This document shows positions 5,266 through 23,155 of a DNA stretch of 64,000 nucleotides, one piece after another. The stretch's first letter is position 1; each line of letters opens with the position of its first letter. The position numbers and the translations under genes are program-made. This DNA is from Gemmatimonadales bacterium. GTDB lineage: Bacteria; Gemmatimonadota; Gemmatimonadetes; Gemmatimonadales; Gemmatimonadaceae. The DNA is taken from contig JBBQRH010000014.1 in the NCBI GenBank assembly GCA_038215035.1, forward strand, positions 2,312-66,311, given 5' to 3'. The notes beneath the pieces were generated by a model. The model saw nothing but the letters and a program-made list of their open reading frames with translations, was not told where the DNA came from and ran no database searches.

Positions 5266-5274
5266 GGCAGCAAG

Positions 5275-5330
5275 CACGAATGAGAACGGGGGCCTGACAG
5301 GACTGTGTCAGGCCCCCGTGCTCATTCGTG
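5275..5330. terminator. Long inverted repeat between the convergent NRPS and PKS genes (candidate bidirectional terminator)
   Basis: 25-nt arms cacgaatgagaacgggggcctgaca / tgtcaggcccccgtgctcattcgtg with one mismatch and a 6-nt loop. It fills almost the whole 68-nt gap between stops at 5265 (+) and 5334 (-). No clear T tract. Confidence 0.5.
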
Positions 5331-5333
5331 ATC

Positions 5334-8300
5334 TCAGTCGCCCGCGACCGTCTCGACCTCAGTGCGCGCTCCGGCGACGGCCGTAGCCGCCGCATCGGCA
5401 GCATCGAGTGCTGCCCGCACACGTAACGCCAGGACGCGCACGTTCGGCTCGTCGCACATGGTCGTGTGATTGCCAGGACAGACGTGTACCTCGACGCCGT
5501 TCAGCAGATAGCGACCCCACCCATGCTCGCTATCCACCTTGACGCCGGACCAGAGCGACAACGCCGTTTCCTCGCGGGCACGAAACAGGGTGCCGTGCAA
5601 CGGCTGCGCATCGGGGCGATAGTTTCTTTCAGCCACCAGCCACGAACCACCGATGGCGTCGTAGCGGAACGTGTCGGGCATGACACGTCCGAGCTGCCGC
5701 GCCACACGCAGTCGCGTATGGTCGCGCGTCGACCAGTAGAGGCGTTGTGCAGTCTCAAAGAGGTACTTGGGACCAACTGAACGCAGGCGGCGCAAGTGCA
5801 GCGCCGCACGTTCCCGGGAGCTGCGCTGCGGCAAAGCCGGGCTGAACGAATCGATGAAGCCGAGGAACGCCACTGATTCGCCACTCTGCATCAGCTGTCG
5901 CGCCATCTCGAATGCGGCCACACCGCCGCCCGAGTAGCCCCCAAGGAAGTACGGTCCATGCGGCTGTTCGCGGCGCAACTCCGCCACGTAATGCGCCGCC
6001 AGCGCCTCGACGCTGTAGAGCAGCTGCTGCGGATCGTCGGCGCCCGGCGGCTGGAGACCCAGAAACGGTCGGCCGTCTCCAAGCAGCACGGCCAGCTTGC
6101 GCAGGTTGCCGAGCGTACCACCCATCCCCGCGACGCAGACGAACGGCGGACGACTGCCCTTGCTCTGCATGGTCACCAGCGACCGCCAGCGCGAGCTGCG
6201 ATCGGCCGCAGTCGCACCGGTCTCCGGCGGCGCCTCCGCGTCGGTGCCGCCGGCCGACGTGAGCACCTCGAGTGCACCGCCGCCCGCGTCGCCTGGCGTG
6301 TTCTCCACGGTGCTCAGATCAATGCCAAGCTCCTGCGCGATGATCTCGGCGCACTGGGCAATCGTGGGCGCTTCAAAGAGTGTCGACAACGGAAGATCGA
6401 CGCGGTAGTGCTTGCGAATCCGCGTGAACAGCCGTACTGCCACCAGCGACTGGCCACCAATCTCGAAGAAGTCATCGTGCACCCCGATCTCGTTCAAGCC
6501 CAGTAGCTGCTTCCAGAGTTCGCAGAGGTGCCGTTCGAGATCGTTCCGTGGTGCGACGAATGACGTGACGAGCTCGGGACGCGCGAAACCCGTACTCTCG
6601 TCGCGAACGTCGTCACCGGCGGTCGCCGAAGCCTCCTGCTTCTGCTGCAACGACGTGATCCACTTCGGCAGATCGAGGGAACTGGTCAGCACATGCCCAG
6701 ACAACCCCGACGCCATGATCCGGTCGAACGCGTCCAACCCTTCGACCGGTGCGATCGCCAGACGCAGCAGCCCGCGCAGGTTTGCCTGCGCCGCTGTCGA
6801 GGGAGCCGCGTCGTCCTGACGCGCGCGATTCAACCGCGCACCTTCGCCGAGGCGTTTCATCACGAAGCCGCGGATCTGCACCAGTGACCTGCCCTCCGAG
6901 TCGTACAGATTCACGTCGAACTTCGCCGTGTCACCGTGGCTTGCCGCAGGATCAAGCCGCACGTGACTGAACACGTCCTGCGTCAGCCCCGAGAAGAGCC
7001 GCACACGCTCATAGGTGAACGGCACATAGAAGTCCGCCGACTGATCGAAGCCGGGAATCAGCAGCTGAGCGCCTCCGGTTGCCATGTCCATCAGTGCTGG
7101 ATGCAACTTGTAGGTCGCAAGGTCAGCACGGAAATCGTCGGGCAGCCTCAGACGGACGAGCGCCTCGGAGCCGCTGGTCGCGGTCTCCATCACGTTGCCC
7201 CAGCGCGGCCCGAAGTCCATGAAGGGTTGCGCCAGGAAGCCGCCGACGCTTACTGGCGTCCCCAAGCGCGCACGGATCGCGGCCAGCGTCTCCACCGGCT
7301 CAGGCGAATCACGGGTCGTGCCGACCGTCCCAACCACACACGGGTCCTCATCCCCCTCAGGCAGAAACGCGAAGTCTCGCACATTTGCACTCCCGCGGTC
7401 CGCGGCCCCGAGGCGGAGACGCAGCACACGCGGGGCTGATCGCCCAACCATGAATGGTCCGAGGAACGTGACGTTGCGGAGTTCGACGGTCTCATCGGAA
7501 CCCACGTTCTCCAGCGCTGCACGTGCCAGTTCGAGGTAGCCCGTCCCGGGGATCAACGCATCGCCACCACGTACGACGTGCTCCGACAGCAGCCACTGTC
7601 GCGCGCGACTGAAGAGCGTGGAATACACCACCGTGCCATCGGGCTCCGTCGCGATGCGTTCGAGATCCGGATGCGGGCCAGGGTGCCCATTCAATCGCGA
7701 GGCCGGATGCACCGCGCCATCGGCGAGCATGGCCGTCATGCCAACCTCTCGCCACGCATTCCATCCGATCGAAATCGCCCGCACATCGGTCGTCAGCCGC
7801 TTCCGTTCGATGAACGCGTCAAGGAACGCATTCGCCGACGTGTAGTCCACCTGTCCCTCGAGCCCGAGCACCGAACTCACCGAGGAGAACGCGATAAAGA
7901 ACTCGAGGGGTTCAGCGCGCAGCACTGCATCCAGCACCATCGCGCCCAGAGCCTTGACGGTGATCACGGGCGTTGGTGCGGACGGCGACTTGAGCGAGAT
8001 GAGACCATCATCGATCAGGCCGGCAGAGTGAATGACGCCATGAATTGCGCCGAACTGCGCTCTGGCCATCGCGACGACGCCGCTCATCTGTTCGAGATCG
8101 GTCACATCCGCCGTCAGCGGCAGCACCTCGCCACCCGCGGCCTCGATCGCGAGCAGCTTGGTCACCTGGCGCCCGATGCGATCGCTGCCACCCTGCGATG
8201 CGATCGCTGCCCATTCGCGACGATCAGGGACGCTCGTCCTGCCGATCAACACCAACCGCGCCTTGGCGGTGCGTGCCAGATGCTCCGCCATTTCCAGGCC

Positions 8301-11300
8301 GATGCCGTTCAGGCCACCAGTAATAAGGATGGTCGCACGCGCTCGCACGATGAGGTCACCACCCACCGCTGGCTCCAGTGGGACTGACGTGAGTACGCGC
8401 ACCCACCGCGCGTTGTGGCGCAGTGCGATGGCGGAATCGGTCACTGGACGTCGGAGTTCCTGCAGCAGACGAGCTGCCTGGTTTTCGACCGAGGCGGAAC
8501 CAAGCCAGAGATCGATACAGCGACTGTGGATCTGCGGCACTTCACGCGCCGCCACCTGCGTCGGCCCCACCAGCAACGCCTTCAGCGGATCAGGCGGCAC
8601 GTCGTCATCGGCACAGCAATAGAGACCACGCGCCACCGTCGACAACACCAATGGCCGTTCCTGCTCCGCCGCGGCCTGCACGATGCAGAGCTGGCTGACG
8701 TAGAAGCTCCCCACCGCACGATTGAGCGCTACCGCCATGTCCGTCTGCTTCATCCAGTCGAAGAACCCCTTCGCCGGCGCATCGAGCCCCCAGAGATGCA
8801 CCACCTGCTCGGGCCACCGATCCTCGATCACGAGCGCCTCGAAGAGCGCCGCAAAGTCCTCGCTGGAGTCGGCACGGACGATGAACTCGGTGTCACTCAC
8901 ACGCCGGAAGCGGGCGCCGATCCGGACCGCCACGGTGCGGCCGGCGGGCCGCAGCGCAGCCAACGCATCCGCCAGACCGCCGCCATCCGCGAAGACCAGC
9001 CAGAGACCGGCAGACGCATCGGTTTCACCAGCGGACATCGCCGACCGGCGCCATAGTGGCATGGAGAACCAGTCGCGGACGTCATCATGCCGCGACATTC
9101 CGCCCACTGGCCTCGCCGCGGCGGTCTCCGTGGTCTGCGCAGGCAACCAGAACCGCTGATGCTCGAACGGATAGGTCGGCAATGGAATGCGCCGCCGCCG
9201 CGCACCGTTGTGCAATGCCGACAGCTGCACGATCCCACCGCTCTCCCAGATCTTGCCGATCGTACCAAGCAGGAAGTCGACGTCTGAGGCACTCTCACGC
9301 GGATGCCGCAATGTGGGGACGGCCACCGGAATCGGTGTCTGCGATCGCGCAAGGCTGCAGAGCGTGCGCCCGGGACCAATCTCGACCAGCACGCTACGAC
9401 CGCTCGCCAGCACGGCCTGCAGCCCATCATTGAATCGAACCGTCTGACGCAGATGCCGCACCCAATACTGCGGATCCATTGCCTCATCCGGCGTGATCCA
9501 CGCGCCGGTCAGGTTCGAAATGAACGGAATCTTCGGCGCAGCGAATCGCACCCGTGCACAGACACGGCCAAACTCCGCCAGGATCGGCTCCAGCATGACC
9601 GAGTGCGCCGCCACCGCGATGTGAATGCGCGTGCTCTCGATCTCGCGCTGCTGTAACGTCGCCTGCAGCGCGTCGATTGCGGCCACGGGCCCGGACGCCA
9701 CACACAGCCGTGGGCCGTTCACCGCGGCAATCGAGAGCGTCTGCCCAAGCAAGGGCAGCAATTCCGACTCCGACAATTCCACACTCAGCATGCCGCCGGC
9801 CGGCAGCGTCTCGAAGAGCCGCGCACGTTCGATCACCAGCGCCAGTCCATCACGCAGAGAAAAGACGCCGGCCAGACAGGCGGCAACGTACTCGCCCATG
9901 CTGTGGCCGATCATCCCGGCCGGCTGCAGACCCCACGCCGTGAGCAGCCTGACGGTGGCATACTCTGTGGCAAAAAGTGCTGGCAGCGCAAAACGTGGTG
10001 CCTCGAGTTCCGTCGTCGCGCTCACCACATCGGCCGGCGCCGGAAAGACCAGACGCCGCAACGTCCCGGCGAGCGAATCCGGCATCTCGGCCAGGCATTC
10101 GTCAAACGCCTGACGATACACCGCTTCGGTCTCGTACAGCTCGCGCCCCATCGACGCGTACTGCGCCCCGCCACCGGGGAACATGTAAACAATGCGTGCG
10201 TCATCACCCGCCGTCGCCGGCACCGTCCCCTTCTGTGGCTCGCGCAGCGCCGCAGCGACCTGTGCCGCGGTGCGACCCACCACCGTGCGCCGATACTGAA
10301 ACGCCACCCGTCCTTCGTGCAGCGTCCAGGCCGCGTCAGCCAGCGAAATGGACGGGTCCTGCTCGAGACAGTCGGCCAGTCGCGTCGCCGCGCGCTCGAG
10401 CGCCGTTCGCGTCTTGGCACTTATTGTTACCAATTGTGCCGACCGCGGCGGCGCGGCGGACGGCGCGACCGGCGGTGCCTCCTCGAGGATCAGATGCGTG
10501 TTGGTGCCACCGGCGCCGAGCGCCGTGACACCGGCGCGACGCGGCCACGCGCCGCGCGGCCACGGCGCCAGCGTCGTGTTGACGAAAAATGGGCTCGAGG
10601 CAAAATCGATCTGCGGATTCGGGGCCGTGAAGTTGACGCAGGGTGGAAACTGCTGGTGCCGGATTGCCAGCACCGTCTTGATGAACCCCGCCATGCCGGC
10701 CGCTTCACCGAGATGGCCGATGTTGGCCTTCACCGAGCCAAGTGCAATGAATCCCTTCTTCTCCGTCAGCGGCGCGTACGCCTGACTCAACGCCTCGACC
10801 TCGATCGGGTCGCCCACCGCCGTGCCGGTGCCATGTGCCTCGATCATGCCGATCGAATCCGCCGGCACGCCCGAGATTGCCAGTGCCTCCGACACCGCGC
10901 GCGCCTGCCCGTCAACGCTCGGCGCCAGATAGCCCACCTTCTGCGAACCATCATTGTTGACCGCCGTACCGCGAATCACGGCCAGAACCGTGTCGCCATC
11001 CTCGAGCGCATCCTCCAGCCGCTTCAGCACGACGCACCCGGTGCCACTGCCGAAGAGCGTTCCCTTCGAGCCGGCGTCGAACGGACGGCAGTGACCATCG
11101 GACGACAGGATCTCGCCCTGCTTGTAGACATACCCGCGGTCCTGCGGCAGCGACATCGTCGATGCGCCCGCCAGTGCCAGATCCGTCTCACGATTCAGCA
11201 GGCTCTGACACGCAATGTGGATGGCGGTCAGCGACGACGAACACGCCGTCTGCACGTTCATCGCCGGCCCCTTCAGATTCATCTGGTACGCGGCACGGGT

Positions 11301-11843
11301 CGCGAGGAAGTTCATGTCGTTGCCGTTGTGGCGTGCCAGCCACTCGCCAACGGTGCGCATGATCTCCTTGTTCGGCACGACGTGATACAGCATGTAGTGA
11401 TTCATGCCGGTGGCCGCAAACACACCGGTGGCCAGCGGGGCGGACTTGCCGGAGTACCCGGCGCGCTCCATCGCCTCCCACGCGACTTCGAGGAAGAACC
11501 GATGCTGCGGGTCCATCACGGACGCGTCGCGCGGACTCATGCCGAAGAACCCGGCGTCGAAGTTCTCGATGCCGTCGAGCTGCGGCCAGGCGCGGACATA
11601 GGCGGGGTCGGCCAGCAGCGACGGATCCTCGCCGGCGGCAAGCAGTTCTTCGTCGGAGAAGAACCGGACGGACTCCACGCCATCGCGGACATTCGCCCAG
11701 TACTCCTCCAACGAGCCAGCACCGGGGAAGCGCCCGGCCATGGCGATGACCGCGATCTCAGTTCCTGTCAGGTCGCTTTCGTTGTGCATCATCGGATCGA
11801 TCGTGCTCGTAGTGTGAAACGTCGGCTGGAAGCAACCGGACAC
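5334..11843 (-). CDS. Type I polyketide synthase, KS-AT-KR-DH-carrier-TE
   Basis: KS: DPQHRFFLEVAWEA, TACSSSL (Cys codon 11241-11243), EAHGTGT, NIGHLG. AT: GHSMGE (Ser codon 9900-9902) and VAAHS. Linker YPFEHQRFW. KR: TGGLNGIG, YTSAN. DH after KR: HVVRGGDALIPG, HPALMD. Carrier: FFEIGGQSL. TE: GGYSGG, PGNH. The ORF start at 11843 is GTG; an ATG-ATG pair at 11792 is an alternative start. Confidence 0.9.
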   Translation of the reverse strand: MSGCFQPTFHTTSTIDPMMHNESDLTGTEIAVIAMAGRFPGAGSLEEYWANVRDGVESVRFFSDEELLAAGEDPSLLADPAYVRAWPQLDGIENFDAGFFGMSPRDASVMDPQHRFFLEVAWEAMERAGYSGKSAPLATGVFAATGMNHYMLYHVVPNKEIMRTVGEWLARHNGNDMNFLATRAAYQMNLKGPAMNVQTACSSSLTAIHIACQSLLNRETDLALAGASTMSLPQDRGYVYKQGEILSSDGHCRPFDAGSKGTLFGSGTGCVVLKRLEDALEDGDTVLAVIRGTAVNNDGSQKVGYLAPSVDGQARAVSEALAISGVPADSIGMIEAHGTGTAVGDPIEVEALSQAYAPLTEKKGFIALGSVKANIGHLGEAAGMAGFIKTVLAIRHQQFPPCVNFTAPNPQIDFASSPFFVNTTLAPWPRGAWPRRAGVTALGAGGTNTHLILEEAPPVAPSAAPPRSAQLVTISAKTRTALERAATRLADCLEQDPSISLADAAWTLHEGRVAFQYRRTVVGRTAAQVAAALREPQKGTVPATAGDDARIVYMFPGGGAQYASMGRELYETEAVYRQAFDECLAEMPDSLAGTLRRLVFPAPADVVSATTELEAPRFALPALFATEYATVRLLTAWGLQPAGMIGHSMGEYVAACLAGVFSLRDGLALVIERARLFETLPAGGMLSVELSESELLPLLGQTLSIAAVNGPRLCVASGPVAAIDALQATLQQREIESTRIHIAVAAHSVMLEPILAEFGRVCARVRFAAPKIPFISNLTGAWITPDEAMDPQYWVRHLRQTVRFNDGLQAVLASGRSVLVEIGPGRTLCSLARSQTPIPVAVPTLRHPRESASDVDFLLGTIGKIWESGGIVQLSALHNGARRRRIPLPTYPFEHQRFWLPAQTTETAAARPVGGMSRHDDVRDWFSMPLWRRSAMSAGETDASAGLWLVFADGGGLADALAALRPAGRTVAVRIGARFRRVSDTEFIVRADSSEDFAALFEALVIEDRWPEQVVHLWGLDAPAKGFFDWMKQTDMAVALNRAVGSFYVSQLCIVQAAAEQERPLVLSTVARGLYCCADDDVPPDPLKALLVGPTQVAAREVPQIHSRCIDLWLGSASVENQAARLLQELRRPVTDSAIALRHNARWVRVLTSVPLEPAVGGDLIVRARATILITGGLNGIGLEMAEHLARTAKARLVLIGRTSVPDRREWAAIASQGGSDRIGRQVTKLLAIEAAGGEVLPLTADVTDLEQMSGVVAMARAQFGAIHGVIHSAGLIDDGLISLKSPSAPTPVITVKALGAMVLDAVLRAEPLEFFIAFSSVSSVLGLEGQVDYTSANAFLDAFIERKRLTTDVRAISIGWNAWREVGMTAMLADGAVHPASRLNGHPGPHPDLERIATEPDGTVVYSTLFSRARQWLLSEHVVRGGDALIPGTGYLELARAALENVGSDETVELRNVTFLGPFMVGRSAPRVLRLRLGAADRGSANVRDFAFLPEGDEDPCVVGTVGTTRDSPEPVETLAAIRARLGTPVSVGGFLAQPFMDFGPRWGNVMETATSGSEALVRLRLPDDFRADLATYKLHPALMDMATGGAQLLIPGFDQSADFYVPFTYERVRLFSGLTQDVFSHVRLDPAASHGDTAKFDVNLYDSEGRSLVQIRGFVMKRLGEGARLNRARQDDAAPSTAAQANLRGLLRLAIAPVEGLDAFDRIMASGLSGHVLTSSLDLPKWITSLQQKQEASATAGDDVRDESTGFARPELVTSFVAPRNDLERHLCELWKQLLGLNEIGVHDDFFEIGGQSLVAVRLFTRIRKHYRVDLPLSTLFEAPTIAQCAEIIAQELGIDLSTVENTPGDAGGGALEVLTSAGGTDAEAPPETGATAADRSSRWRSLVTMQSKGSRPPFVCVAGMGGTLGNLRKLAVLLGDGRPFLGLQPPGADDPQQLLYSVEALAAHYVAELRREQPHGPYFLGGYSGGGVAAFEMARQLMQSGESVAFLGFIDSFSPALPQRSSRERAALHLRRLRSVGPKYLFETAQRLYWSTRDHTRLRVARQLGRVMPDTFRYDAIGGSWLVAERNYRPDAQPLHGTLFRAREETALSLWSGVKVDSEHGWGRYLLNGVEVHVCPGNHTTMCDEPNVRVLALRVRAALDAADAAATAVAGARTEVETVAGD

Positions 11844-12043
11844 AGGGGCGGTGACACAAAGCTCCAGTGGCTGGCGCGGCGCCGGGTACGCTGAACGAGA
11901 GCGCAGTCACCGCACTGCCGGCCGGTTGCTGCGTCGAGTCATCCGCTGGCTCCGAGTGTCTGACGAGCGAGTCAGAAAATTATCTCAACGCGCGCGTTGC
12001 GCAGGTGGCGCGCCCCCGTCCCTGGAGCCGACTGGACTGCTCG

Positions 12044-12072
12044 TTGTGCCGCTCGACCCAACCGGGTAACTT
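12044..12072 (+). promoter_or_regulatory. Candidate sigma70-like promoter for tRNA-Ser
   Basis: TTGTGC (12044-12049), a 17-nt spacer, then TAACTT (12067-12072), 11 nt upstream of the mature tRNA 5' end. Pattern match only. Confidence 0.3.
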
Positions 12073-12083
12073 CTTCGGCTGTT

Positions 12084-12172
12084 GGAGGGATGGCCGAGAG
12101 GCTGAAGGCACCGGTTTGCTAAACCGGCGTACTGGGAAACTGGTACCGAGGGTTCGAATCCCTCTCTCTCCG
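12084..12172 (+). tRNA. tRNA-Ser (anticodon GCU)
   Basis: Cloverleaf folded by hand. Acceptor ggaggga/tctctcc. Anticodon stem ccggt/accgg with loop ttGCTaa. Long variable arm gtactgg-gaaa-ctggtac. T arm gaggg-ttcgaat-ccctc. Discriminator g. No encoded CCA. Confidence 0.9.
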
Positions 12173-12178
12173 TGTGAC

Positions 12179-12211
12179 GGGCCCACCACGTACCGGTGGG
12201 CCCGTTTTCTT
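12179..12211 (+). terminator. Rho-independent terminator after tRNA-Ser
   Basis: Stem gggcccacc / ggtgggccc followed by gttttctt. Confidence 0.6.
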
Positions 12212-12235
12212 ATCCGCACCGAGGCCCTGCCCCGC

Positions 12236-13690
12236 ATGACCGCGCCCGCCCCACGCCTTCGATTTGCCCCCTCCCCGACCGGATACCTCCATGTCGGGGG
12301 CGCCCGAACGGCGCTCTTCAACTGGCTCTGGGCCCGGAAGACCGGGGGTAAGTTCCTCCTCCGGATCGAGGATACTGACAAGGCCCGCAGCACCGACGAG
12401 AGTACCGCGGCGATCTTTCACGGGCTCGAGTGGCTGGGGCTGGACTGGGATGAGGACGTGGTCTTCCAGGGCGCCAACGTCGCCCGCCACAAGGCCGACG
12501 CCCAGCGATTGGTCGAGAACGGATCCGCCTACCTCGATTTCACCACCGTCGCCGAACTCGACCGACTTCGCGCCGACGCGGATGCCCGAAAGGAGCCATT
12601 TCGATTCGACCGGCGCCTCGCCAGCTGGTCACCGGACCAAATCCGGCAGAAGCTCGCCGACGGCGAACCGTTCACCATCCGGTTCCGCGTCCCGGATGGC
12701 ACGACCGCCTGGGACGACATCGTGCATGGGCGCATCGCCTTCGAGAACAAGGAGATCGAGGACTTCATCATCCTCCGCTCCGACGGCACACCGATCTACA
12801 ACCTCGCCGTCGTCTCCGATGACATCGCGATGGCCATCACGATCGTGATGCGCGGCGACGATCATATTTCGAATACGCCAAAGCAGATCCTCCTCTATCA
12901 GGCGCTTGGCGCTCCACTGCCGCAGTTCGCACACGTGCCCATGATCCACGGCACGGATGGCAAGAAGCTCAGCAAGCGTCGCGATGCGGCGGCCGTCGGC
13001 GACTGGGAGTACAAGGGAATTCTGCCGACGGCGATGGCAAACTTCCTCGCGCTCCTTGGCTGGAGCCCAGGTGACGATCTCGAGGTCATGATGCCGGACG
13101 AGATGCTGAGGCATTTCACCCTCGATCGCCTGCACCGGAAAGCGGCAATCTTCGACACGCAGAAACTCGAGTGGATGAACGGGCAGCACCTGTCGCGACG
13201 CCCACTGGACGAAGTGCTGCCGCGCGTGATCGACGCGCTCGTCCGTCACGACGTCGCGACCCCGGAGCGGCTCGCCGCCGATCCCGCCTGGACGGCGCAT
13301 CTCGTCGATCAACTCCGCGTTCGGTCCCGCACGATCGAAGAAATCGTGAAGCAGGCGCGACCATATCTCATAGACGAGCTCGTCTACGACGACGAGGCGG
13401 TCGCAAAAGCGTTGCTGAAGGATCGCGTCGTGAGTGCCGACATTCTCTCCGCGACACGGGACGCACTCGAGAACGCGCCGGCATGGACTGCGGAGGCGCT
13501 CGAGCCGGCCCTGCGAACACTCGCGGAATCACGTGGTCTGGCGGCGGGGAAGATCTTCACCCCACTCCGGGTCGCGGTCACGGGACTCTCGGTCAGCCCG
13601 GGCATCTTCGATGTCCTCACACTGATCGGCAGGGACCGAAGCCTCGAGCGTCTCGCGCGCACGCTGGACATGCTGGCGACAACGCCGTAG
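12236..13690 (+). CDS. gltX: Glutamyl-tRNA synthetase
   Basis: MTAPAPRLRFAPSPTGYLHVGGARTALFNWLWARK...LLRIEDTD (HIGH region) and KLSKR (KMSKS region). Start moved to ATG 12236 because the listed ORF (11867) runs through tRNA-Ser. Confidence 0.92.
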   Translation: MTAPAPRLRFAPSPTGYLHVGGARTALFNWLWARKTGGKFLLRIEDTDKARSTDESTAAIFHGLEWLGLDWDEDVVFQGANVARHKADAQRLVENGSAYLDFTTVAELDRLRADADARKEPFRFDRRLASWSPDQIRQKLADGEPFTIRFRVPDGTTAWDDIVHGRIAFENKEIEDFIILRSDGTPIYNLAVVSDDIAMAITIVMRGDDHISNTPKQILLYQALGAPLPQFAHVPMIHGTDGKKLSKRRDAAAVGDWEYKGILPTAMANFLALLGWSPGDDLEVMMPDEMLRHFTLDRLHRKAAIFDTQKLEWMNGQHLSRRPLDEVLPRVIDALVRHDVATPERLAADPAWTAHLVDQLRVRSRTIEEIVKQARPYLIDELVYDDEAVAKALLKDRVVSADILSATRDALENAPAWTAEALEPALRTLAESRGLAAGKIFTPLRVAVTGLSVSPGIFDVLTLIGRDRSLERLARTLDMLATTP

Positions 13691-13703
13691 GCGGGCCCAC
13701 TTC

Positions 13704-13735
13704 GGGGCTCCCTGCGTCACGTCACAGGGAGCCCC
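13704..13735 (+). promoter_or_regulatory. Perfect 11-bp inverted repeat abutting the lexA-like start codon (gltX terminator, SD-sequestering hairpin or operator)
   Basis: ggggctccctg (13704-13714), spacer cgtcacgtca, cagggagcccc (13725-13735), then ATG at 13736. The right arm contains the only SD-like GGGAG. Confidence 0.4.
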
Positions 13736-14392
13736 ATGAGCAACACACTGACGTCGACGGAAGAGAAGGTCTACCAGTATCTGATCGAGTTTCTGGCGGC
13801 GAACAGCTACCAGCCCAGCATCCGGGAAATCGGTCGCCAGTTCGACATCAAGTCGACGAAGACCGTGTCGGATGTCCTCGGCAACCTGGCCCGCAAGGGA
13901 TACATCCAGCGCAACCAGGCACGCTCGCGGGGACTGCGAATTCTCGGCGCGCACCAGACCGGCGGCAGCCGCTCCCTCCCCTATTACTCCCGCGTATCAG
14001 CCTTCGGCACCGCGATCACGGCAGAGCATCAGAGCGACGCGCTCGTCATCGATCGACGGCTCGCGCCGTCGGACTCCGCCTTCTTCCTCCGTGTCTCGGA
14101 TGACGGCATGGCGGCACTGAGCATCCGTCGCGACGACACCGTGATGGTGAGTCCGGAGATCGCGGCGCTCGACGGTGATCTGGTCGCAGTCCGGGCGGGA
14201 CACGAGGCGGTCGTACGCGCCTTCCGGCAAGACGGCAATACCGTGTCACTGATCGCCGCTGACGACAACTTCGATCCGATCAGCGTGCCGCCAGGCGACG
14301 AGCAGGTGATCATCGGCTTCGTCTGTGCCGTGTTTCGCGCCACCCTCCACGCCGACGACGCCATTGATCCGAATGCGGAAGCGGCGGCATGA
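13736..14392 (+). CDS. lexA: LexA-family repressor with a degenerate S24 peptidase domain
   Basis: N-terminal wHTH resembles LexA (EKVYQYLIEFL...PSIREIGRQFDIKSTKTVSDVLGNLARKGYIQR...SRGLRIL). The C-terminal domain aligns to LexA (FFLRVSDDGM...GDLVAV...AVVRAF), but the Ala-Gly, Ser and Lys positions are substituted. Confidence 0.8.
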   Translation: MSNTLTSTEEKVYQYLIEFLAANSYQPSIREIGRQFDIKSTKTVSDVLGNLARKGYIQRNQARSRGLRILGAHQTGGSRSLPYYSRVSAFGTAITAEHQSDALVIDRRLAPSDSAFFLRVSDDGMAALSIRRDDTVMVSPEIAALDGDLVAVRAGHEAVVRAFRQDGNTVSLIAADDNFDPISVPPGDEQVIIGFVCAVFRATLHADDAIDPNAEAAA

Positions 14393-14422
14393 CGACCGCG
14401 CCGCGCTCGAAGGCGCGAGGCG

Positions 14423-15301
14423 TCAGCGATCCTGCGGCTGAATCGGAACCGGCGCAACCGGTGAATCCTGCCCTTCGCGCGCTTCCTTCCGCTCGCGATC
14501 ACGACGCTCACGAATTCGCTTCACGCGCTCGTTGAACGTTTCTGCATTCAGCGCCACCTGCGCGCCAGCCTGGATCTGCTGGCGCATGAGCCATGGATTT
14601 TCCTGACGAATGATCGACGTCGGGTTGCTGCCGAGCCGGTTGAGGGGCAGCAACGCCAGCAACGGTGCCGGCAGCGTGATGTTGCCGAGCACAATGCCGC
14701 GCTGCGACCACCCGTACTTCTTGCCGCCGCGTGTGAATGTCAGGTCGGCGCGGCCGTCTTCGGTGACATTACTTCGCGGAGCGTTGGCCAGACTGTCGGC
14801 GTACTCCGCGAACCGTTCCGCGATCACGCTGTCGAGGCGTTCCTTCGGCGTGAGAATGACCCTGGGCGGTTGTGCCGGGCCTGGATACAGCCGCGGATCG
14901 TACTCGGGCACTATTCCGCGGGCGACGCCCGACCCACGACCAATGCCGTACCCGGATCCCGTCCCACCACCAGCGCCGCCCTGACCGCCGGCAGCGTCCG
15001 GGGTCGTCGTTGGTACAACCGTGGGCGCCACCAGAAGACTCGGCTGCCGATTCCGAGTCGGCTTGACCACACCATTCACCGGTGCGCCGCCACCTGATGC
15101 ATCCCCTCCCGGCGGCGTCACGGCCACCAGCTCGATCTTCTCGCGTTGGGCCGCCGACTGTGGTCCGATCAGCCATTCAGCGATGCCGTTGGAGCCAAGC
15201 ACCACGCGCAGCAGCGCCACACCCACCATCAGATGCAGGGCAACGGAGATCGCGATCGCACCGTTCGATCGCTGCTCCGGCTCGCGAGGCTTGAACAACA
15301 T
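14423..15301 (-). CDS. Hypothetical membrane-anchored protein (N-terminal TM, Gly/Pro-rich linker)
   Basis: N-terminal hydrophobic segment AIAISVALHLMVGVALLRVVL. The ATG overlaps the upstream stop by 1 nt. Good third-position GC bias. No family recognised. Confidence 0.6.
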   Translation of the reverse strand: MLFKPREPEQRSNGAIAISVALHLMVGVALLRVVLGSNGIAEWLIGPQSAAQREKIELVAVTPPGGDASGGGAPVNGVVKPTRNRQPSLLVAPTVVPTTTPDAAGGQGGAGGGTGSGYGIGRGSGVARGIVPEYDPRLYPGPAQPPRVILTPKERLDSVIAERFAEYADSLANAPRSNVTEDGRADLTFTRGGKKYGWSQRGIVLGNITLPAPLLALLPLNRLGSNPTSIIRQENPWLMRQQIQAGAQVALNAETFNERVKRIRERRDRERKEAREGQDSPVAPVPIQPQDR

Positions 15302-16482
15302 CAGACCGCGGCTCCAAACGAGGCAAGCACGCGACCCGCGCGCACCGCTGCGTCACGCAGCCGGTCCGGCGACGCAATGAAGCTGATCCGGAAGAACCCC
15401 TCGCCGCCGGCACCGAAGCCGGTGCCGGGCATCACCACCACCCCTTCCTCATCCAGCAGGCGGTCCGCAAAAAGCTGGCTTGGAATGCCGTCCGGAAGTG
15501 GAATCCAGAGATACATCGCCGCCTTCGGCACGTCGCAGCTGAAGCCGGCGGCGCGAAAGGCCTGCACGGCGGCATCGCGGCGCGCCTGAAACACGGCAAC
15601 ATTCTGCGGCACGAAGTCGGCCCAACTCTCGATCGCGGCGACGCCGGCCTGCTGCACCGCCATGAACGCGCCCGTGTCGACGTAGCTCTTCACCTTCGAC
15701 AGCGTGGTGATGATCTCGGGCTTCGCACAGGCCCAGGCGCAGCGCCAGCCAGTCATGTTGTACGTCTTCGACAACGAGTGAAACTCGATGGCGACGTCTC
15801 TCGCGCCATCGATCTCGAAGATGCTCGGCGGCACATACCCATCGAAGCCCATCTCCGAGTAAGCGTTGTCGTACACCAGCAGAATGTCCAGCTCGCGACA
15901 GCGACGCACCACCCGCTCGAGATAGTCGCGAGGCGCGATCGCGGCCGTTGGATTGTTCGGATAGTTCAGATACAAAATCCGCGCACGACGCAGCACATCA
16001 TCCGGCACCTCATCCAGATCGACCAGGAACTGGTTCTGCGGGCGGAGCGCGTAGTAGTAAGGCATGCCGCTGCTGAGCAGCGTGCCACCCTTGTATGCGT
16101 TGTATCCCGGCTCAGGGACAATGGTGAAGTCACCCGCGTTGACGTAGCCGAGCGCCAGATGCGACAACCCTTCCTTGCTGCCGAGCAACGGAACGATTTC
16201 CGTCGTCGGATCGAAGCGCACGCCGAAGCGCCGCTCCATCCAGCCACTCACCGCATCGCGATACGCCGGATTCCCCAGCCCGAACCCGTAGCGGTTCATG
16301 GCCGGAATCCGCGACGCCGCCGCCAGCGCATCGACCGCTGCGGCCGGCGGCGCCAGATCGGCGTCGCCCGCGCCAAGATCGATCACATCCACGCCGCGAG
16401 CAATCAGTTCGCGCTTCTTGATCGGAATCAGCGCGAGCGGGTAGTCGGGCAGCGAGTCGAAGCGATGGGAACGCGGAGGCAT
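15301..16482 (-). CDS. PLP-dependent aminotransferase class I/II (LL-diaminopimelate aminotransferase-like)
   Basis: FDSLPDYPLALIPIKKRELIARGVDVIDLGAGDADLAPP, YLNYPNNPT, and PLP-lysine motif SLSKTYNMTGWRCAW. Confidence 0.8.
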   Translation of the reverse strand: MPPRSHRFDSLPDYPLALIPIKKRELIARGVDVIDLGAGDADLAPPAAAVDALAAASRIPAMNRYGFGLGNPAYRDAVSGWMERRFGVRFDPTTEIVPLLGSKEGLSHLALGYVNAGDFTIVPEPGYNAYKGGTLLSSGMPYYYALRPQNQFLVDLDEVPDDVLRRARILYLNYPNNPTAAIAPRDYLERVVRRCRELDILLVYDNAYSEMGFDGYVPPSIFEIDGARDVAIEFHSLSKTYNMTGWRCAWACAKPEIITTLSKVKSYVDTGAFMAVQQAGVAAIESWADFVPQNVAVFQARRDAAVQAFRAAGFSCDVPKAAMYLWIPLPDGIPSQLFADRLLDEEGVVVMPGTGFGAGGEGFFRISFIASPDRLRDAAVRAGRVLASFGAAV

Positions 16483-17099
16483 CAGGATTCGGCGACGACA
16501 GGATTGGAGACAGTGCTGTACCCGACGACTTCAACTTCCACCGTGTCGCCCGGCAGCAGCGGGCCGACCCCGGCCGGAGTGCCGGTGGCCACGATGTCCC
16601 CGGCCTCGAGGGTCATGACCTGAGAAATGTAGGCCAGCAACGCCGGCACCGAGAACACCATCTCCGAACCCCTGCCCCGCTGACGAACGACACCGTTGAC
16701 CCTCGTGACCACCTCGAGCCCGTCGAAATCGGGGATTCCAGCCCACTCTGGCCCGATCGGGCAGAACGTGTCGAACCCCTTTCCCCTCGTCCACTGCGGG
16801 TCAGACTTCTGAATATCCCGCGCGGTGACGTCATTCAGCGCCACGATGCCCCGGATTGCCGCCAACGCCAGCGCCTCGCTGGCGCGCCGGATCGGGGTCC
16901 CGATGACGACCCCGATTTCTCCCTCGTGTTCCACCTGCCGGGACATTTTCGGGGAGATGATCGCGTCGCCGGATCGGATGATCGCACTCGACGGTTTGAG
17001 GAAAAGCAGCGGCTCGGCCGGCACCGCGTTGCCCAGCTCCTTCGCATGCTCTCGGTAATTGCGACCAACGCAGACAATCTTGCCTGGACGAGCGCTCAT
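16482..17099 (-). CDS. Fumarylacetoacetate hydrolase (FAH) family protein
   Basis: KIVCVGRNYREHAKELGN..PAEPLLFLKPSSA, EGEIGVVIG, ALNDVTARD, TFCPIGP, GDIVATGTPAGVGP. Confidence 0.85.
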   Translation of the reverse strand: MSARPGKIVCVGRNYREHAKELGNAVPAEPLLFLKPSSAIIRSGDAIISPKMSRQVEHEGEIGVVIGTPIRRASEALALAAIRGIVALNDVTARDIQKSDPQWTRGKGFDTFCPIGPEWAGIPDFDGLEVVTRVNGVVRQRGRGSEMVFSVPALLAYISQVMTLEAGDIVATGTPAGVGPLLPGDTVEVEVVGYSTVSNPVVAES

Positions 17100-17110
17100 G
17101 AAATCTCGGA

Positions 17111-19699
17111 TCAGAGAGTCGACAGCGTTTCCGCCACGCGGGCGGCGTAAAAATCAATGATACGACGTTCCGCCTCGGCCCACGGCCGAAGCACCCGCTG
17201 CGCCGGTGGCAGGGCGTCGAGCAGGTCGCGCCCATACCGCTTGGTCACCACGCGCACATCGTCGAGGACGATCACACCGCGGTCGGTCGCCGTGCGGATC
17301 AGTCGACCCACGCCCTGCTTGAGACGCAAGGTGGCATGCGGCAACATGTACTCCATGAACGGGTCTCCACCGCGCGCCTCGATCGCGTCGCACTGCGCCG
17401 ACACCATCGGCTCCGTTGGAACGCGAAACGGCAGTTTGTTAATCACCAGGCCACGCAGCGCGTGCCCGGGGACGTCGACCCCTTCCCAGAACGTTGCGGT
17501 GCCGACCAGAATCGCTCTCCCGGACTGCCGGAAGCGCTTGAGCAGCGTATCCCGACCATCTTCGCCGTGCACCAGCAGCGGCCATCCATGTGCGACCGCA
17601 GCGTCGCGCAGCAACCCTGAGAGGGCCCGCACATCACGATGGCTGGTGCACAACACGAACAATCCGCCGTCGCTCGCCTCAGCGACATCGAGCACGTGCC
17701 CGACCACCGCGCGTTGGTGCCCCACCGGATCGAGATTGGGCGCGGGCGTATCGCTCGGCACCACCAGCATCGCGTTCTCGCCGTAATCGAACGGCGAAGG
17801 AAACTGCGCCGTCTCCACTTGGGTCTCGGCGTCGTCCAGCCCGAGCCGGCCGAGCAGGAAACTGAAGTTGGCATTCGGCGTCAGCGTCGCACTCGTCACC
17901 ACCGTACTGCTCAATCGACCGAACAGATCATCGCGCAAAATTGGCGCCAGATCGAGCGGGACGCTGTACAGCAGGACAGTCGGCGAAGTGTTTCCGCGTG
18001 TGCTCGCGCCATCAGCGCGGCCACGCAGCTCTGCCCAACGGACAAAGCCCTTGGCGTCATCCGGCGGATCGAGCGTCGCACGCAATGCATCCACGTGAGA
18101 GGAAGTGCGAGAGCCGACACCACGCAACTCCTGCAGCAGCCCGAGCAGCGCCTCATCCCGTTCATCCTCGGTTTCGAGACGCTCGCGGATCAGGCGCAAG
18201 TTCTCACCGATCGACTCGAGGGCCGTCACCAGATTCCGCAGCGCAGCCTGCAACCCATCCCGCCAGACTGCTTCACTGTGCAGGTCGGGAGTGAGCCGGA
18301 TGGTGGCCACCTTGCTCTCCTGCAGCCAGAGGGCGATTCGATCGAACAGCTGCGCGGCGTCACCGCGTGCGTTCTCGACCGCAGGCCGGAGCCGGGCCCG
18401 CAGCAGGTCGAGGCTCGCCACGCTGAGCAGGTCACCGCGCGCCATCAACCGCGTCTCGAGCGTTGGCAACAGGCCCTTGGCCTCGCGCCCCCCGCGACGC
18501 TCCAGACGATTCAGCAGCTTGGAAACGGCACGGTTCGAGACACTGCTCCCGAGATGATTCGCCGCCGCATCCTCGAGATGATGGCCTTCGTCGACGACGA
18601 GATGTGAGTATGCCGGCAGCACGGCGGCTTCTGCCCAGTTCTGTGAGGCGCGTCGCACGGCAATGTCAGCCAGCAACAGCGAATGGTTCACCACGACCAC
18701 GTCCGCCGTGGCCGCAAGCCGGCGAGCCTTGAACACGAAGCAGGCATCGAAGTAACTGCATTTCAGTCGCGTACAGAGATCACCCTCCGCCGCGACTTCG
18801 TCCCACACATCCGGCCGCGGTGGAGTTGGCAGATCGCTGAGCGAACCGTCGCTGCTGGCCTTCGCCCATTCACCCAGCAGTCGCAACTCCTCACGCTGCG
18901 GCGCCTCGAACAAGGACGCACTGGCAGCGTCGGCCTGCGCCAGTCGCGCCAGACAGAGATAGTTGCGCCACCCCTTGAGCAACGCAAACCGTACCGGCTG
19001 GTCACTGAGCAGGTCAGCCAGCAGCGGCAGATCCTTGCCGACCAGCTGCTCCTGCAACGTGATCGTGTTGGTGCTGACGACCGTCCGCTCCTGATTGGCG
19101 GCCGCCCAGCGCAGCGCGGGCACCAGATAGGCCATCGACTTGCCGACGCCCGTTCCCGCTTCGAGCAGCGCCACGCCACCGTCCGCGTAGGTGCGCGCAA
19201 TGGTCGTCGCCATGTCACGTTGCCCATCGCGTGATTCATACGAGCCGAACCCACGAGCGAGCGGCCCCTCCGGCCCGAAATCCCGCTCGATCGAGGACGC
19301 GGGAATGACCGTCTTCGCCACGATGCGCGGCACTTCCGTCACGACGTAGAGGTCGGTGACATCGTTGTCCGTGATGCCGAAGCCGACGCCATCGTCATGC
19401 AATCGCGCGGCGATATTCAGATCCGCATCACTCGGCTCCAGCCACCCGGAGGGATGGTTGTGGACGAGCATCTCACCACGCTGCGCCACGCCGGGCAACG
19501 CCAGCACCTGACCGGTCGTCCCGCGCGCCACGGCGCGCGCTGATGTCAGCGTGCCGCCCACATCCACCGCGCAGACGAAACAGACTTCACGACCACCCGC
19601 CAGGCGAATCGCCACCCGCATGGCCATCGCCGCGGCCGTCGCAATGCGAAAGTCGGGTGGGGTCTCGTCAGTCCTGGCAGCCTTGGCGCGGCGCGTCAT
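17111..19699 (-). CDS. dinG: DinG/XPD-family Fe-S DNA helicase with an N-terminal RadC-like JAB (JAMM) domain
   Basis: N-terminus: LVHNHPSGWLEPSDADL (H-x-H-P-x6-S-x2-D, codons 19421-19462). Helicase: Walker A AGTGVGKS, DEGH box VVDEGHHLE, four Cys (YLCLARL, LCTRLKCSYFDAC), and C-terminal motifs TATFWEGVDVPG and QGVGRLIR. Confidence 0.85.
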   Translation of the reverse strand: MTRRAKAARTDETPPDFRIATAAAMAMRVAIRLAGGREVCFVCAVDVGGTLTSARAVARGTTGQVLALPGVAQRGEMLVHNHPSGWLEPSDADLNIAARLHDDGVGFGITDNDVTDLYVVTEVPRIVAKTVIPASSIERDFGPEGPLARGFGSYESRDGQRDMATTIARTYADGGVALLEAGTGVGKSMAYLVPALRWAAANQERTVVSTNTITLQEQLVGKDLPLLADLLSDQPVRFALLKGWRNYLCLARLAQADAASASLFEAPQREELRLLGEWAKASSDGSLSDLPTPPRPDVWDEVAAEGDLCTRLKCSYFDACFVFKARRLAATADVVVVNHSLLLADIAVRRASQNWAEAAVLPAYSHLVVDEGHHLEDAAANHLGSSVSNRAVSKLLNRLERRGGREAKGLLPTLETRLMARGDLLSVASLDLLRARLRPAVENARGDAAQLFDRIALWLQESKVATIRLTPDLHSEAVWRDGLQAALRNLVTALESIGENLRLIRERLETEDERDEALLGLLQELRGVGSRTSSHVDALRATLDPPDDAKGFVRWAELRGRADGASTRGNTSPTVLLYSVPLDLAPILRDDLFGRLSSTVVTSATLTPNANFSFLLGRLGLDDAETQVETAQFPSPFDYGENAMLVVPSDTPAPNLDPVGHQRAVVGHVLDVAEASDGGLFVLCTSHRDVRALSGLLRDAAVAHGWPLLVHGEDGRDTLLKRFRQSGRAILVGTATFWEGVDVPGHALRGLVINKLPFRVPTEPMVSAQCDAIEARGGDPFMEYMLPHATLRLKQGVGRLIRTATDRGVIVLDDVRVVTKRYGRDLLDALPPAQRVLRPWAEAERRIIDFYAARVAETLSTL

Positions 19700-21461: not shown

Positions 21462-23155
21462 CAGGAGGTCCCCGCCATGCGACGAGCCGCATCGAGTTCA
21501 CGACGCGCCTGAGGAGCCAGCGCACTGCCGGGATACGTGAGCAACAGGTGTTCCAACCGGGCGATGGCCGTGCCACCATCGCGTCCACGAAGCGCGGCAC
21601 GCGCCCATTCCAGATCCCCTTCCGGTGCCTCGGGACTGGTACTGAAATCACTCACGATCCGCGTCCAGAGCGGCACCGCGCGCGCATCATCACCGCGCGC
21701 CGTCAACAGGCGCGCGGCCATCGCCAGCACCAAGGGGGCGGCATCACCGACCTCGGTTGTGGTGCTCAGCAACTGCGTCAGCGCCGCCGCGGTATCGCGC
21801 CGCGCCAACGCCGTGAATGCCGAACCAATCGCCGTCGATGTCGGCAGGGTCGTGCGTGAGAGGAGTGCCCGCGGCGACAGGAGGAGCGTGTTCGACGCGT
21901 CCGCATTGCGTAACGCCAGGCGCGCCTTGTCCAGATCTCCATCGTAGATCGCCAGCAGCGCGGTGGCCTCGTCCTCGTCAAGTCGCGCCACGAGGGGCCT
22001 CGCGCGCGCGGCATCTCCGACACGCAGCCACGCCCACATCAGTTCGCGCTCGAGCATTTGCAACTGCACCGGAACGACCTTCGGACGCACTGAATCGACG
22101 AGCGCCAACGCGTCCGCGGCACGTCCCAACGCGGCCAGCGAGCGCAGACGCACCGGCACCGCGTCGCGCAGCCCAAGCTGCGGCGAGAGCACTCCCTGCG
22201 CCGCCGAGGCCAGTTGCAATGCCGTCGCCGCCTCACCACTCGCCAGCGCCGCGTCGGCGGCCCGCAGCGCGCTCGCCGCCTCGCCGGTCTTGCGGTAGAT
22301 CGCGGCCCACGCCTCGCGCGAGGCCACCGGCATGCTGCGCGCGTCCGCCTCGTCTGCGAACTCCTTCCACGCCGCCACCGCGTCCGCATCCGCCTTCACC
22401 CCCGTAAACGCCAGCCAGGCTTGCCGTGGCTGCGACCAGATCAGCTCCAGCGACGCCAGCACACGTCGCGCCGGCAGCCAGATTGGCTCGGCGGTCAGAT
22501 TGGTGCGCACGGAATCCCGCGCCGCACCAGTCGCCAGTGAGAGCGCGAAGATCGCGGCTTGGTATAGCTGCGGCGTCTGCGTCAGTGTTTCGCGCCAGCG
22601 CCGCGACGCCTCGTTCCACATCCGTTGCGCCGCCGCAACCTGTGCCAGTTCCGCACTGAAGTCGCGCGGGTCACGGACCATCCGCGCGGCCACGGTCAGG
22701 ACCGAATCGGCGGCGGCCGATCGGCCTGACTCCAGCAACAACCGCGCATACTCCTTGAACGGCGCCGCCTCACCCGGGACGGCGCGGACCCAGTCACGAA
22801 CGGCGGCGGTGAGTTCATCGTCCCGCTGCAGCGCTGACAACGTGCGCAACTGCACCGACCGCACCACACCGCTTCGGGGATCAGCCCGGACCGCACTCCG
22901 CACCAGCGGCACGAGCGAATCGATCATGCCAAGCGTCGTGTACACGCGCTCCAGACCGAGCAGCGCCGGCATCATCCCGGTGCCGGAAAACGCCCGGCGA
23001 TACAGCACTGCCGCATCGCGCGGCTTGCTGTCCTCGAGATCCAGCGCGCGCAACACCAGTGAGTCCGTCGTGCTCGTGCCCAGCTCCTGCGCACGCACCG
23101 GCACTGTGACCGCAAGCGCCAGACTTGCGGCCAACGCCCACGATCGGGCAGCCAT
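21461..23155 (-). CDS. Secreted TPR-like helical-repeat protein
   Basis: Start moved to ATG 23155 (MAARSWALAASLALAVTVPVRAQ signal peptide), which shares one nt with the upstream TGA (tgatg). Ala/Leu/Arg-rich helical-repeat composition throughout. Confidence 0.6.
   Translation of the reverse strand: MAARSWALAASLALAVTVPVRAQELGTSTTDSLVLRALDLEDSKPRDAAVLYRRAFSGTGMMPALLGLERVYTTLGMIDSLVPLVRSAVRADPRSGVVRSVQLRTLSALQRDDELTAAVRDWVRAVPGEAAPFKEYARLLLESGRSAAADSVLTVAARMVRDPRDFSAELAQVAAAQRMWNEASRRWRETLTQTPQLYQAAIFALSLATGAARDSVRTNLTAEPIWLPARRVLASLELIWSQPRQAWLAFTGVKADADAVAAWKEFADEADARSMPVASREAWAAIYRKTGEAASALRAADAALASGEAATALQLASAAQGVLSPQLGLRDAVPVRLRSLAALGRAADALALVDSVRPKVVPVQLQMLERELMWAWLRVGDAARARPLVARLDEDEATALLAIYDGDLDKARLALRNADASNTLLLSPRALLSRTTLPTSTAIGSAFTALARRDTAAALTQLLSTTTEVGDAAPLVLAMAARLLTARGDDARAVPLWTRIVSDFSTSPEAPEGDLEWARAALRGRDGGTAIARLEHLLLTYPGSALAPQARRELDAARRMAGTS

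Follow-up and report, generated by a model that had tools for sequence, protein, structure and literature searches.

A clade of Gemmatimonadota LexA orthologues with a constrained DNA-binding domain and a predicted loss of self-cleavage

The gene at positions 13736..14392 on the forward strand of a 64,000-nucleotide stretch of Gemmatimonadales DNA (GenBank assembly GCA_038215035.1, contig JBBQRH010000014.1, positions 2,312 to 66,311; hereafter the window), whose source is a sediment metagenome, encodes a homologue of the SOS repressor LexA. Comparison of this protein with its relatives shows a LexA fold, a strongly constrained DNA-binding domain and the predicted absence of the self-cleavage chemistry, and in all likelihood it acts as a non-cleavable yet functional repressor. 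In the textbook account, the bacterial DNA-damage response is switched by self-cleavage of LexA, a reaction that has also been proposed as a drug target against resistance evolution, and to our knowledge the Synechocystis protein is the only studied exception to it. The best overall explanation of the observations described below, which we consider likely, is that of a non-cleaving repressor whose level would be set by linkage to the upstream gltX gene and by turnover through its C-terminal tail.

The coding sequence starts with ATG and comprises 218 amino acids plus a stop codon, and its assignment draws on the list of open reading frames (ORFs), on Pfam and NCBIfam matches and on synteny. 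Residues 3-66 (13742..13933, + strand) match the LexA-type winged-helix DNA-binding domain in Pfam (PF01726 LexA_DNA_bind, E 4.4e-14), and residues 82-197 (13979..14326, + strand) match PF00717 Peptidase_S24 (E 1.8e-17), an S24-like domain with the fold kept and the catalytic residues gone. The protein scores 124.4 bits with the NCBIfam equivalog TIGR00498 lexA and hence passes the cut-off of 110.95. An AlphaFold2 model built from a 98-sequence alignment has a mean predicted local distance difference test score (pLDDT) of 87.6, with values >90 in the S24 region, and in Foldseek searches its N-terminal domain superimposes on 1lea with a template-modelling score (TM) of 0.88, while its C-terminal domain matches the C-terminal domains of LexA proteins with TM 0.77-0.82 and root-mean-square deviations of 2.6-3.0 A. 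The original prediction, made from the letters of the sequence, of a LexA homologue at 13736-14392 with a conserved N-terminal winged helix is thus borne out by Pfam, TIGR00498, Foldseek and synteny, and the latter feature also by a 93% identity of this domain within the clade to which the protein belongs. Its nearest database relatives all come from Gemmatimonadaceae or from Gemmatimonadota metagenome-assembled genomes, and an identical protein is found on an independent Logan contig. The locus was found in no RNA runs, and the DNA runs that contain it are sediment or mat metagenomes.

Three elements of the self-cleavage reaction are replaced in the window LexA, as established by phmmer alignments to the LexA structures 8s7g, 3k2z and 1jhh and by several MAFFT alignments with E. 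coli LexA among the sequences. In the cleavage loop, RVAAGEP of E. coli pairs with RVSAFGT, such that the former scissile bond Ala84-Gly85 is replaced by Ala89-Phe90 (14000..14005, + strand). The S24 motif RVSGMSM pairs with RVSDDGM, where Asp122-Asp123-Gly124 (14099..14107, + strand; alignment of 105 clade sequences) take the place of Gly117-Met118-Ser119 and the nucleophile Ser119 is lost to Gly124 (codon 14105-14107, ggc). The EVTVKRL motif pairs with EAVVRAF, and the general base Lys156 is replaced by Arg161 (14216..14218, + strand). Hence, the Ser-Lys dyad of an active MEROPS S24 peptidase is absent (Gly124, Arg161), and further changes include Gly117 to Asp and Thr154 to Val. No other alignment register was found that brings back Ala-Gly, Ser or Lys. 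The by-eye alignment of the original prediction, in which all three of these features were replaced, is therefore reproduced by phmmer and MAFFT, and the computational comparison with curated LexA proteins neither shifted the register nor recovered the catalytic residues. Since the substitutions are common to about 105 relatives, and an identical protein occurs on the independent Logan contig, a sequencing accident can be set aside. S119A, K156A and G85D are classical non-cleavable alleles of E. coli LexA and were used to trap solved structures (e.g. 1jhf and 1jhh). The computed alignments and the conservation across the clade support the prediction that the window LexA is non-autocleavable.

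Among the 120 best matches of the window LexA, about 100 carry degenerate residues at these positions and about 20 are canonical with 47-50% identity. When 209 distinct sequences are placed in a neighbour-joining tree, the degenerate proteins with an -AA end group together as a single monophyletic clade of about 105 sequence clusters, and residues were counted in 105 degenerate versus 92 canonical sequences. At E. coli position 156, Arg is present in 105/105 degenerate proteins, as compared to Lys in 92/92 canonical ones, and position 117 is Asp in 103/105 degenerate and Gly in 92/92 canonical proteins. Position 119, Ser in all 92 canonical sequences, is occupied by Ala in 80 and by Gly in 23 of the 105. 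The scissile-bond glycine at position 85, likewise invariant in the canonical set (92/92), is replaced by Phe in 72, Leu in 11 and Ile in 8 of the 105 sequences, while the adjacent position 86 changes from Glu (87/92) to Gly (101/105) and position 154 from Thr (91/92) to Val (91/105). As judged from these alignments, the residues of the degenerate clade are new fixed states rather than scatter.

The pattern of constraint differs between the two domains. Mean pairwise identity in the DNA-binding domain is 0.93 within the degenerate clade versus 0.83 among canonical proteins, and in the S24 core the corresponding values are 0.59 and 0.75, with 0.38 between the clades. For the products of the adjacent genes, identity between clades as read off per-locus values is roughly 72% (aminotransferase), 64% (hydrolase) and 59% (helicase), and set against these better-kept neighbours the S24 core appears to have changed fast and then settled. 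Its divergence nevertheless falls well short of neutral decay, and all ORFs are intact in the degenerate clade. In both clades the recognition helix reads KSTKTVSD without exception, and the wing changes from IERDESRSRG in canonical to IQRNQARSRG in degenerate proteins with a loss of acidic residues. The conservation pattern indicates that the winged-helix domain and the S24 fold, the latter as a dimerisation scaffold, are under purifying selection. The basal members P0093, P0094, P0097 and P0098 (loci L097, L098) have S24 deletions of about 15-25 residues, giving total lengths of 193-204 amino acids, and despite these deletions retain an -AAA tail and the invariant N-terminal domain.

The window gene is the resident orthologous lexA and no stray paralogue. 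Canonical (AG/Ser/Lys) or degenerate lexA genes of about 100 Gemmatimonadota contigs lie at one and the same locus, with the shared order gltX, lexA and then, on the opposite strand, a hypothetical gene, a class I/II aminotransferase, an FAA-family hydrolase and a DinG-family helicase. The locus of canonical P0102 (L002) and that of degenerate P0007 (L005) have a gene order identical to that of the window, and PF00749 is matched by the gltX orthologues of both. A scan of GTDB species genomes returned 80 best loci, all of the canonical branch and including Roseisolibacter sp. H3M3-2 and a Gemmatimonas metagenome-assembled genome; each comes from a separate assembly, and 80/80 are syntenic wherever the contig is long enough. 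Ten more degenerate loci from Joint Genome Institute (JGI) metagenomes and the deep-branching degenerate loci L097-L099 are syntenic as well. As canonical and degenerate genes share this order, the degenerate genes are positional orthologues of intact LexA.

Loss of the triad is not confined to this clade, since isolated degenerate genes with varied combinations of changes are found within the otherwise canonical branch. Written as cleavage-site pair / residue 119 / residue 156, these sporadic cases comprise AA/A/R (L085), AG/G/R (L046), AG/S/R (L041), xG/G/K (L077 and P0109), AT/S/K (L079), AG/G/K (P0100), SI/G/R (P0105) and AT/T/R (P0118). The commonest change is Lys to Arg, which is the sole change in several lineages. 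When 1.84 billion cluster representatives were searched exhaustively with HMMER and the matches compared with E. coli LexA, 32/33 full-length representatives with the IKSTKTV helix miss at least one of the three features, a count that is inflated because clustering at 50% squeezes the slow canonical branch into 1-2 representatives and because some of the sequences are partial or frameshifted. The distant representatives P0130 (TG/S/R) and P0126 (DC/G/R) are also located between gltX and a DinG-like helicase. From these sequences, it is evident that other Gemmatimonadota lineages lost the triad independently, and such repeated independent loss could mean, on the bolder reading outlined below, that classical SOS induction is dispensable in the phylum. 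Five further proteins (P0141, P0161, P0170, P0183 and P0232) combine the same recognition helix and a degenerate S24 domain with a distinct common C-terminus (...PTAH or ...KAH), which may point to another family of catalytically dead LexAs marked by a conserved tail of its own.

Redundancy of function would make repeated loss of the triad more tolerable, and several bacteria carry two lexA genes. Accordingly, a division of labour can be envisaged, in which a canonical cleavable LexA encoded elsewhere in the genome, of which the window covers only 64 kb, and possibly acquired horizontally, runs the SOS response and leaves the gltX-linked copy free. Such an arrangement deserves consideration and is nevertheless unlikely, because, by its position, the degenerate gene is orthologous to canonical lexA and no second S24 or LexA ORF was noticed among the annotated ORFs of the window. 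Moreover, the 80 best GTDB loci, which represent the canonical branch of the Gemmatimonadota LexA type, include no non-syntenic one and no two from one assembly; LexAs of foreign type lay outside the reach of this search.

Turning to how the level of a single non-cleaving repressor might be set, the region upstream of lexA differs between the two clades. The gltX gene for glutamyl-tRNA synthetase (12236..13690, + strand) stops 45 nucleotides (nt) before the lexA-like start. The canonical spacer measures 130-170 nt and contains a promoter-like TTGCGY or TTGACC-N17-TACATT; in every degenerate locus the spacer is 44-45 nt long and consists of a GC-rich hairpin with no canonical promoter element. 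A search for a sigma-70-like promoter in 11800-14600 of the window found none. Judged by these spacers, the degenerate clade has lost the separate lexA promoter, and co-expression of lexA with gltX in this clade seems reasonably probable from the gene arrangement. Further upstream, a promoter-like TTGTGC-N17-TAACTT (12044-12072, + strand), tRNA-Ser(GCU) (12083-12173, + strand) and an intrinsic-terminator-like hairpin (12176-12206, + strand; about 30 nt before the gltX start) form a layout that is conserved in degenerate loci. Given this terminator of tRNA-Ser just before gltX, expression of gltX and lexA would rely on terminator read-through.

The spacer hairpin of the window, GGGGCTCCCTG-N10-CAGGGAGCCCC (13704..13735, + strand), has a minimum free energy of -27.3 kcal/mol (z -2.9) and begins 14 nt past the gltX stop codon. 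Its 3' arm holds the Shine-Dalgarno sequence AGGGAG (13726-13731), and the stem reaches the lexA-like ATG. Single-sequence folds give comparable hairpins in most of 14 degenerate-clade loci, for example at 9968-9998 in L005 and at the same position in L087-L099. RNAalifold recovers only 3 pairs in a MAFFT alignment that misaligns the 5' arms of this short spacer, and covariation is not demonstrable because the 3' arm is near-invariant and the 5' arms carry indels. No Rfam family matches the gltX-lexA spacer. The hairpin could be a translational-coupling or attenuation element.

The second derived feature of the clade is located at the C-terminus. Residues 201-218 of the window LexA (14336..14389, + strand) form a predicted disordered tail (pLDDT ~50) that ends in ...DPNAEAAA-COOH, the last three codons (14381-14389) being Ala-Ala-Ala. 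An Ala-Ala-COOH end is present in 97/98 clade members (77 AAA, 17 VAA and 3 EAA), with ...DPDAEAAA as the typical form; position -3 is Ala or Val, and positions -4 and -5 are mostly Glu/Asp or Ala. In the same comparison, -AA ends occur in 0/17 canonical relatives and in none of the sporadically degenerate ones, and the background among crudely called ORFs of these loci is about 3%. The Ala codons of the tail vary synonymously between loci, which points to selection on the protein. Concerning the order of tail gain and catalytic loss, no canonical sequence was found markedly nearer to the degenerate clade, all of them being 42-47% identical.

The E. coli LexA fragment released by cleavage ends in ...VAA. 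Self-cleavage of LexA-like repressors uncovers a C-terminal degron that is read by ClpXP (PMC7101444; PMC10584840), and among C-degrons of E. coli ClpXP the terminal Ala-Ala is critical, being necessary but insufficient (PMC10862746). By analogy with these degrons, the invariant (A/V)AA-COOH tail might tentatively be taken as a permanently exposed degron of the ssrA/ClpX type, an assignment whose probability falls somewhat short of even.

Taken together, the window LexA would act as a dimeric repressor that RecA*-stimulated autoproteolysis is unable to switch off. Its synthesis would be tied to gltX, as the separate promoter is gone and lexA would be co-transcribed with gltX, and the hairpin would sequester the ribosome-binding site until a ribosome terminating on gltX opens the stem, which would amount to translational coupling. 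Turnover would proceed through the exposed (D/E)(A/V)AA-COOH tail: likened to the ssrA tag and to the degron that canonical repressors expose only after cleavage, this tail would allow ClpXP or another AAA+ protease to degrade the full-length protein directly. A bolder extension, possible though rather doubtful, is that the SOS repressor of the clade has been rewired through a permanent ssrA-like degron, which would bypass the RecA*-triggered cleavage that merely uncovers a ClpX degron in canonical LexA, and through gltX coupling in exchange for the autoregulated promoter, such that its regulon reports translation versus AAA+ protease capacity and not RecA filaments.

Several observations weigh against this explanation. 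Upstream polar or charged residues weaken Ala-Ala tags in E. coli (PMC10862746), and the tail carries Asp/Glu at -4 and -5. In the larger set of about 92 canonical proteins, -AA ends do occur, albeit only in L074, L079, L063 and L068, and other independently degenerate lineages of the phylum are without an -AA tail; hence the tail does not strictly go together with the loss of catalysis. As for the spacer hairpin, it may be nothing more than a U-less gltX terminator. Searches for an operator and a regulon found none for the degenerate clade, and neither of the candidate boxes described below lies upstream of the degenerate lexA genes. Finally, the pocket of LexA that receives F203 of RecA is formed by V79, V82, F111, L113, V146 and V153 (bioRxiv 10.1101/2023.10.30.564768), and its equivalents in the window LexA are still hydrophobic, so that some RecA* contact is conceivable.

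Besides acting as a degron, the tail could serve as a ligand that mimics the cleavage product ...V-A-A-COOH, docking in cis or in trans into the dead cleft or else recruiting a partner such as an anti-repressor. Its (A/V)-A-A end indeed resembles P3-P1 of the LexA cleavage site, and the residues of the cleft are remodelled to the clade-specific invariants D117, V154 and R156. However, the AlphaFold2 model leaves the tail disordered and undocked and we know of no precedent for such a tail, hence we regard this role as quite improbable. Still less can be said for a LexA that remains RecA*-responsive without cleavage, by docking on the RecA filament through the hydrophobic pocket and being titrated off the DNA or passed to a protease, a behaviour for which no precedent is known to us. 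The equivalents of the F203 pocket are equally hydrophobic in both clades, with F111 kept in 95/105 degenerate proteins, but these residues also belong to the hydrophobic core, so that their conservation may be structural, and the pocket forms only when the loop adopts its 'cleavable' conformation, and this loop is rewritten here (AFG for AGE). Such a response is therefore very unlikely.

Persistence of self-cleavage through another nucleophile or site is barely credible: apart from Ser121 near the old nucleophile nothing was found in its favour, this residue is unconserved (A, V, S or G within the clade at the site that matches E. coli position 116), Arg serves poorly as a general base, and each of G85D, S119A and K156A already renders the E. 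coli protein non-cleavable, while here all three elements are changed together. Equally remote is a decaying relic or pseudogene in the making, to which the lower conservation of the S24 core (0.59 vs 0.75) and the internally deleted basal members of 193-204 amino acids might point, given the intact ORFs in >100 lineages, an N-terminal domain that is 93% identical across the clade, and the new clade-specific invariant residues and invariant tail, which indicate selection.

In the search for an operator, dyads were enumerated over 80 canonical upstream regions, and AACA-N2-TGTT was found in 16/80 of them with 0.15 expected. All of these cases come from a single sub-branch, in which the dyad always has the same placement across the -35 element, and inheritance is thus inseparable from function. 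In L007-L035, the near-palindrome GAAACAAGTGTTGCG lies over the -35 element about 100-118 nt upstream of lexA, and its AACA-N2-TGTT core is that of the Gram-positive-type LexA box; the corresponding candidate box GAAACA-N2-TGTTGC overlaps the lexA -35 element in this one canonical sub-branch only. The sub-branch of L047, L054 and L080 has a related AAACACGTGTCT downstream of the -10 element. GAAACAAGTGTTGCG and AAACACGTGTCT are candidate Gemmatimonadota SOS boxes, and GAAACAAGTGTTGC is a candidate operator sequence. Motif discovery upstream of lexA, which the original prediction had proposed, hence yielded a candidate in one canonical sub-branch and none upstream of the degenerate genes. A scan of the window found one AACAGGTGTT, at 21543 inside a coding region, which is at chance level as 22% of shuffles do likewise, and GAAC-N4-GTTC in the window was also found at chance level only.

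The conserved convergent block downstream of lexA spans 14423..19699 on the minus strand, with synteny over about 100 loci, and comprises a hypothetical protein of 292 amino acids (14423-15301, convergent to lexA) followed by the aminotransferase (15301-16482), the FAA hydrolase (16482-17099) and the DinG-family helicase (17111-19699), the last three being assigned by Pfam. The 292-residue protein has no Pfam match and an N-terminal hydrophobic segment; it neighbours lexA in essentially every locus of both clades, with stop codons 4-30 nt apart, and measures 275-297 amino acids in P0102/P0007-type loci. The helicase contains Helicase_C_2 (E 2.3e-42), a DEAD domain and, at its N-terminus, a RadC-like JAB domain (PF04002, E 1.9e-6) versus the exonuclease domain of some DinG proteins, and this RadC-like/DinG fusion is kept in related loci. 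The original prediction had pointed to a DinG-family helicase gene, a classical SOS gene in E. coli, about 3 kb from lexA. Such a gene is indeed present, but an SOS link finds no support: the helicase is convergent with lexA, separated from it by three genes and distal in a longer operon, and no recognisable LexA-box-like motif was found upstream of that operon. As the linkage is ancestral, occurring next to canonical and degenerate lexA alike, and lacks a box, it is uninformative about the SOS regulon. No classical SOS genes were found among the larger annotated ORFs elsewhere in the window.

Two very large biosynthetic genes (46-11843) lie upstream of gltX-lexA. The first (46-5265, + strand) encodes a protein like non-ribosomal peptide synthetases (NRPS) with condensation, adenylation, luciferase-like monooxygenase, methyltransferase and carrier domains, and the second (5334-11843, - strand) a type I polyketide synthase (PKS) with the domain order KS-AT-KR-DH-ACP-TE; a similar PKS is found beside gltX in L098. 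At 40580-43003 (- strand), an 807-residue fusion joins a serine beta-lactamase-family domain to a D-Ala-D-Ala dipeptidase (Peptidase_M15) domain, and a GntR/FCD regulator gene adjoins it.

With canonical LexA of E. coli, Thermotoga and Pseudomonas (1jhf, 3k2z, 8s7g), the window LexA shares the two-domain architecture and the fold, and it differs from them by lacking Ala-Gly, Ser, Lys and an own promoter and by having the conserved -AA-COOH tail. The closest studied parallel is LexA (Sll1626) of Synechocystis PCC 6803, in which Ala-Gly is changed to Gly-Gly and Ser to Asp (PMC3091678) and whose control is ascribed to post-translational modification (PMC7567884). The comparison with this protein, already drawn in the original prediction, is apt, as both are LexA orthologues without the Ala-Gly bond and the Ser nucleophile; like the window LexA, Sll1626 is predicted to be non-cleavable, and it is regarded as a regulator outside SOS that is tuned otherwise. 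Among relatives with an unbroken triad, those nearest to the window LexA are Gemmatimonadota LexAs from the same locus, hence the loss in the window LexA is independent of that in Sll1626. Unlike Synechocystis LexA, the window clade also exchanges the Lys base for an invariant Arg, and the loss defines a large clade and recurs in the phylum, in contrast to one strain lineage in Synechocystis, and sister lineages still carry intact orthologues at the shared locus. Loss of the promoter with gltX linkage and the -AA tail are features of the window clade that are not described for Synechocystis LexA.

With respect to turnover, Caulobacter CtrA is a ClpXP-read regulator with a terminal Ala-Ala. More generally, ClpXP removes repressors that bind DNA and present C-terminal residues to ClpX, such as the N-terminal fragments left by self-cleavage of LexA and IrvR (PMC7101444) and the phage Mu repressor, which, as cited in PMC10584840, exposes a C-terminal ClpX motif on induction. 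In the window LexA, by contrast, the motif is permanent at the end of the full-length protein, is a putative degron and is preceded by acidic residues that are unfavourable in E. coli screens. The S24 non-peptidase homologues of MEROPS likewise have the S24 fold without the Ser-Lys dyad; this is a bookkeeping category, of which the window LexA would be a clade-wide, positionally orthologous case with derived features. Literature searches found no paper that deals with LexA of Gemmatimonadetes, and Synechocystis was the only organism for which they turned up a description of a LexA pseudo-protease.

Thus, the resident lexA of a whole clade within an abundant, poorly studied phylum of soil and sediment appears to have lost its switch while its DNA-binding domain tightened, and the clade gained new invariants, namely the Asp117/Arg156 pair and the Ala-Ala C-terminus. 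The annotation 'repressor LexA' in a metagenome-assembled genome is accordingly no proof of an SOS response. As sister lineages carry the intact switch at the same locus, they provide a natural comparison of what replaces self-cleavage and of what LexA regulates once RecA* sensing is gone.

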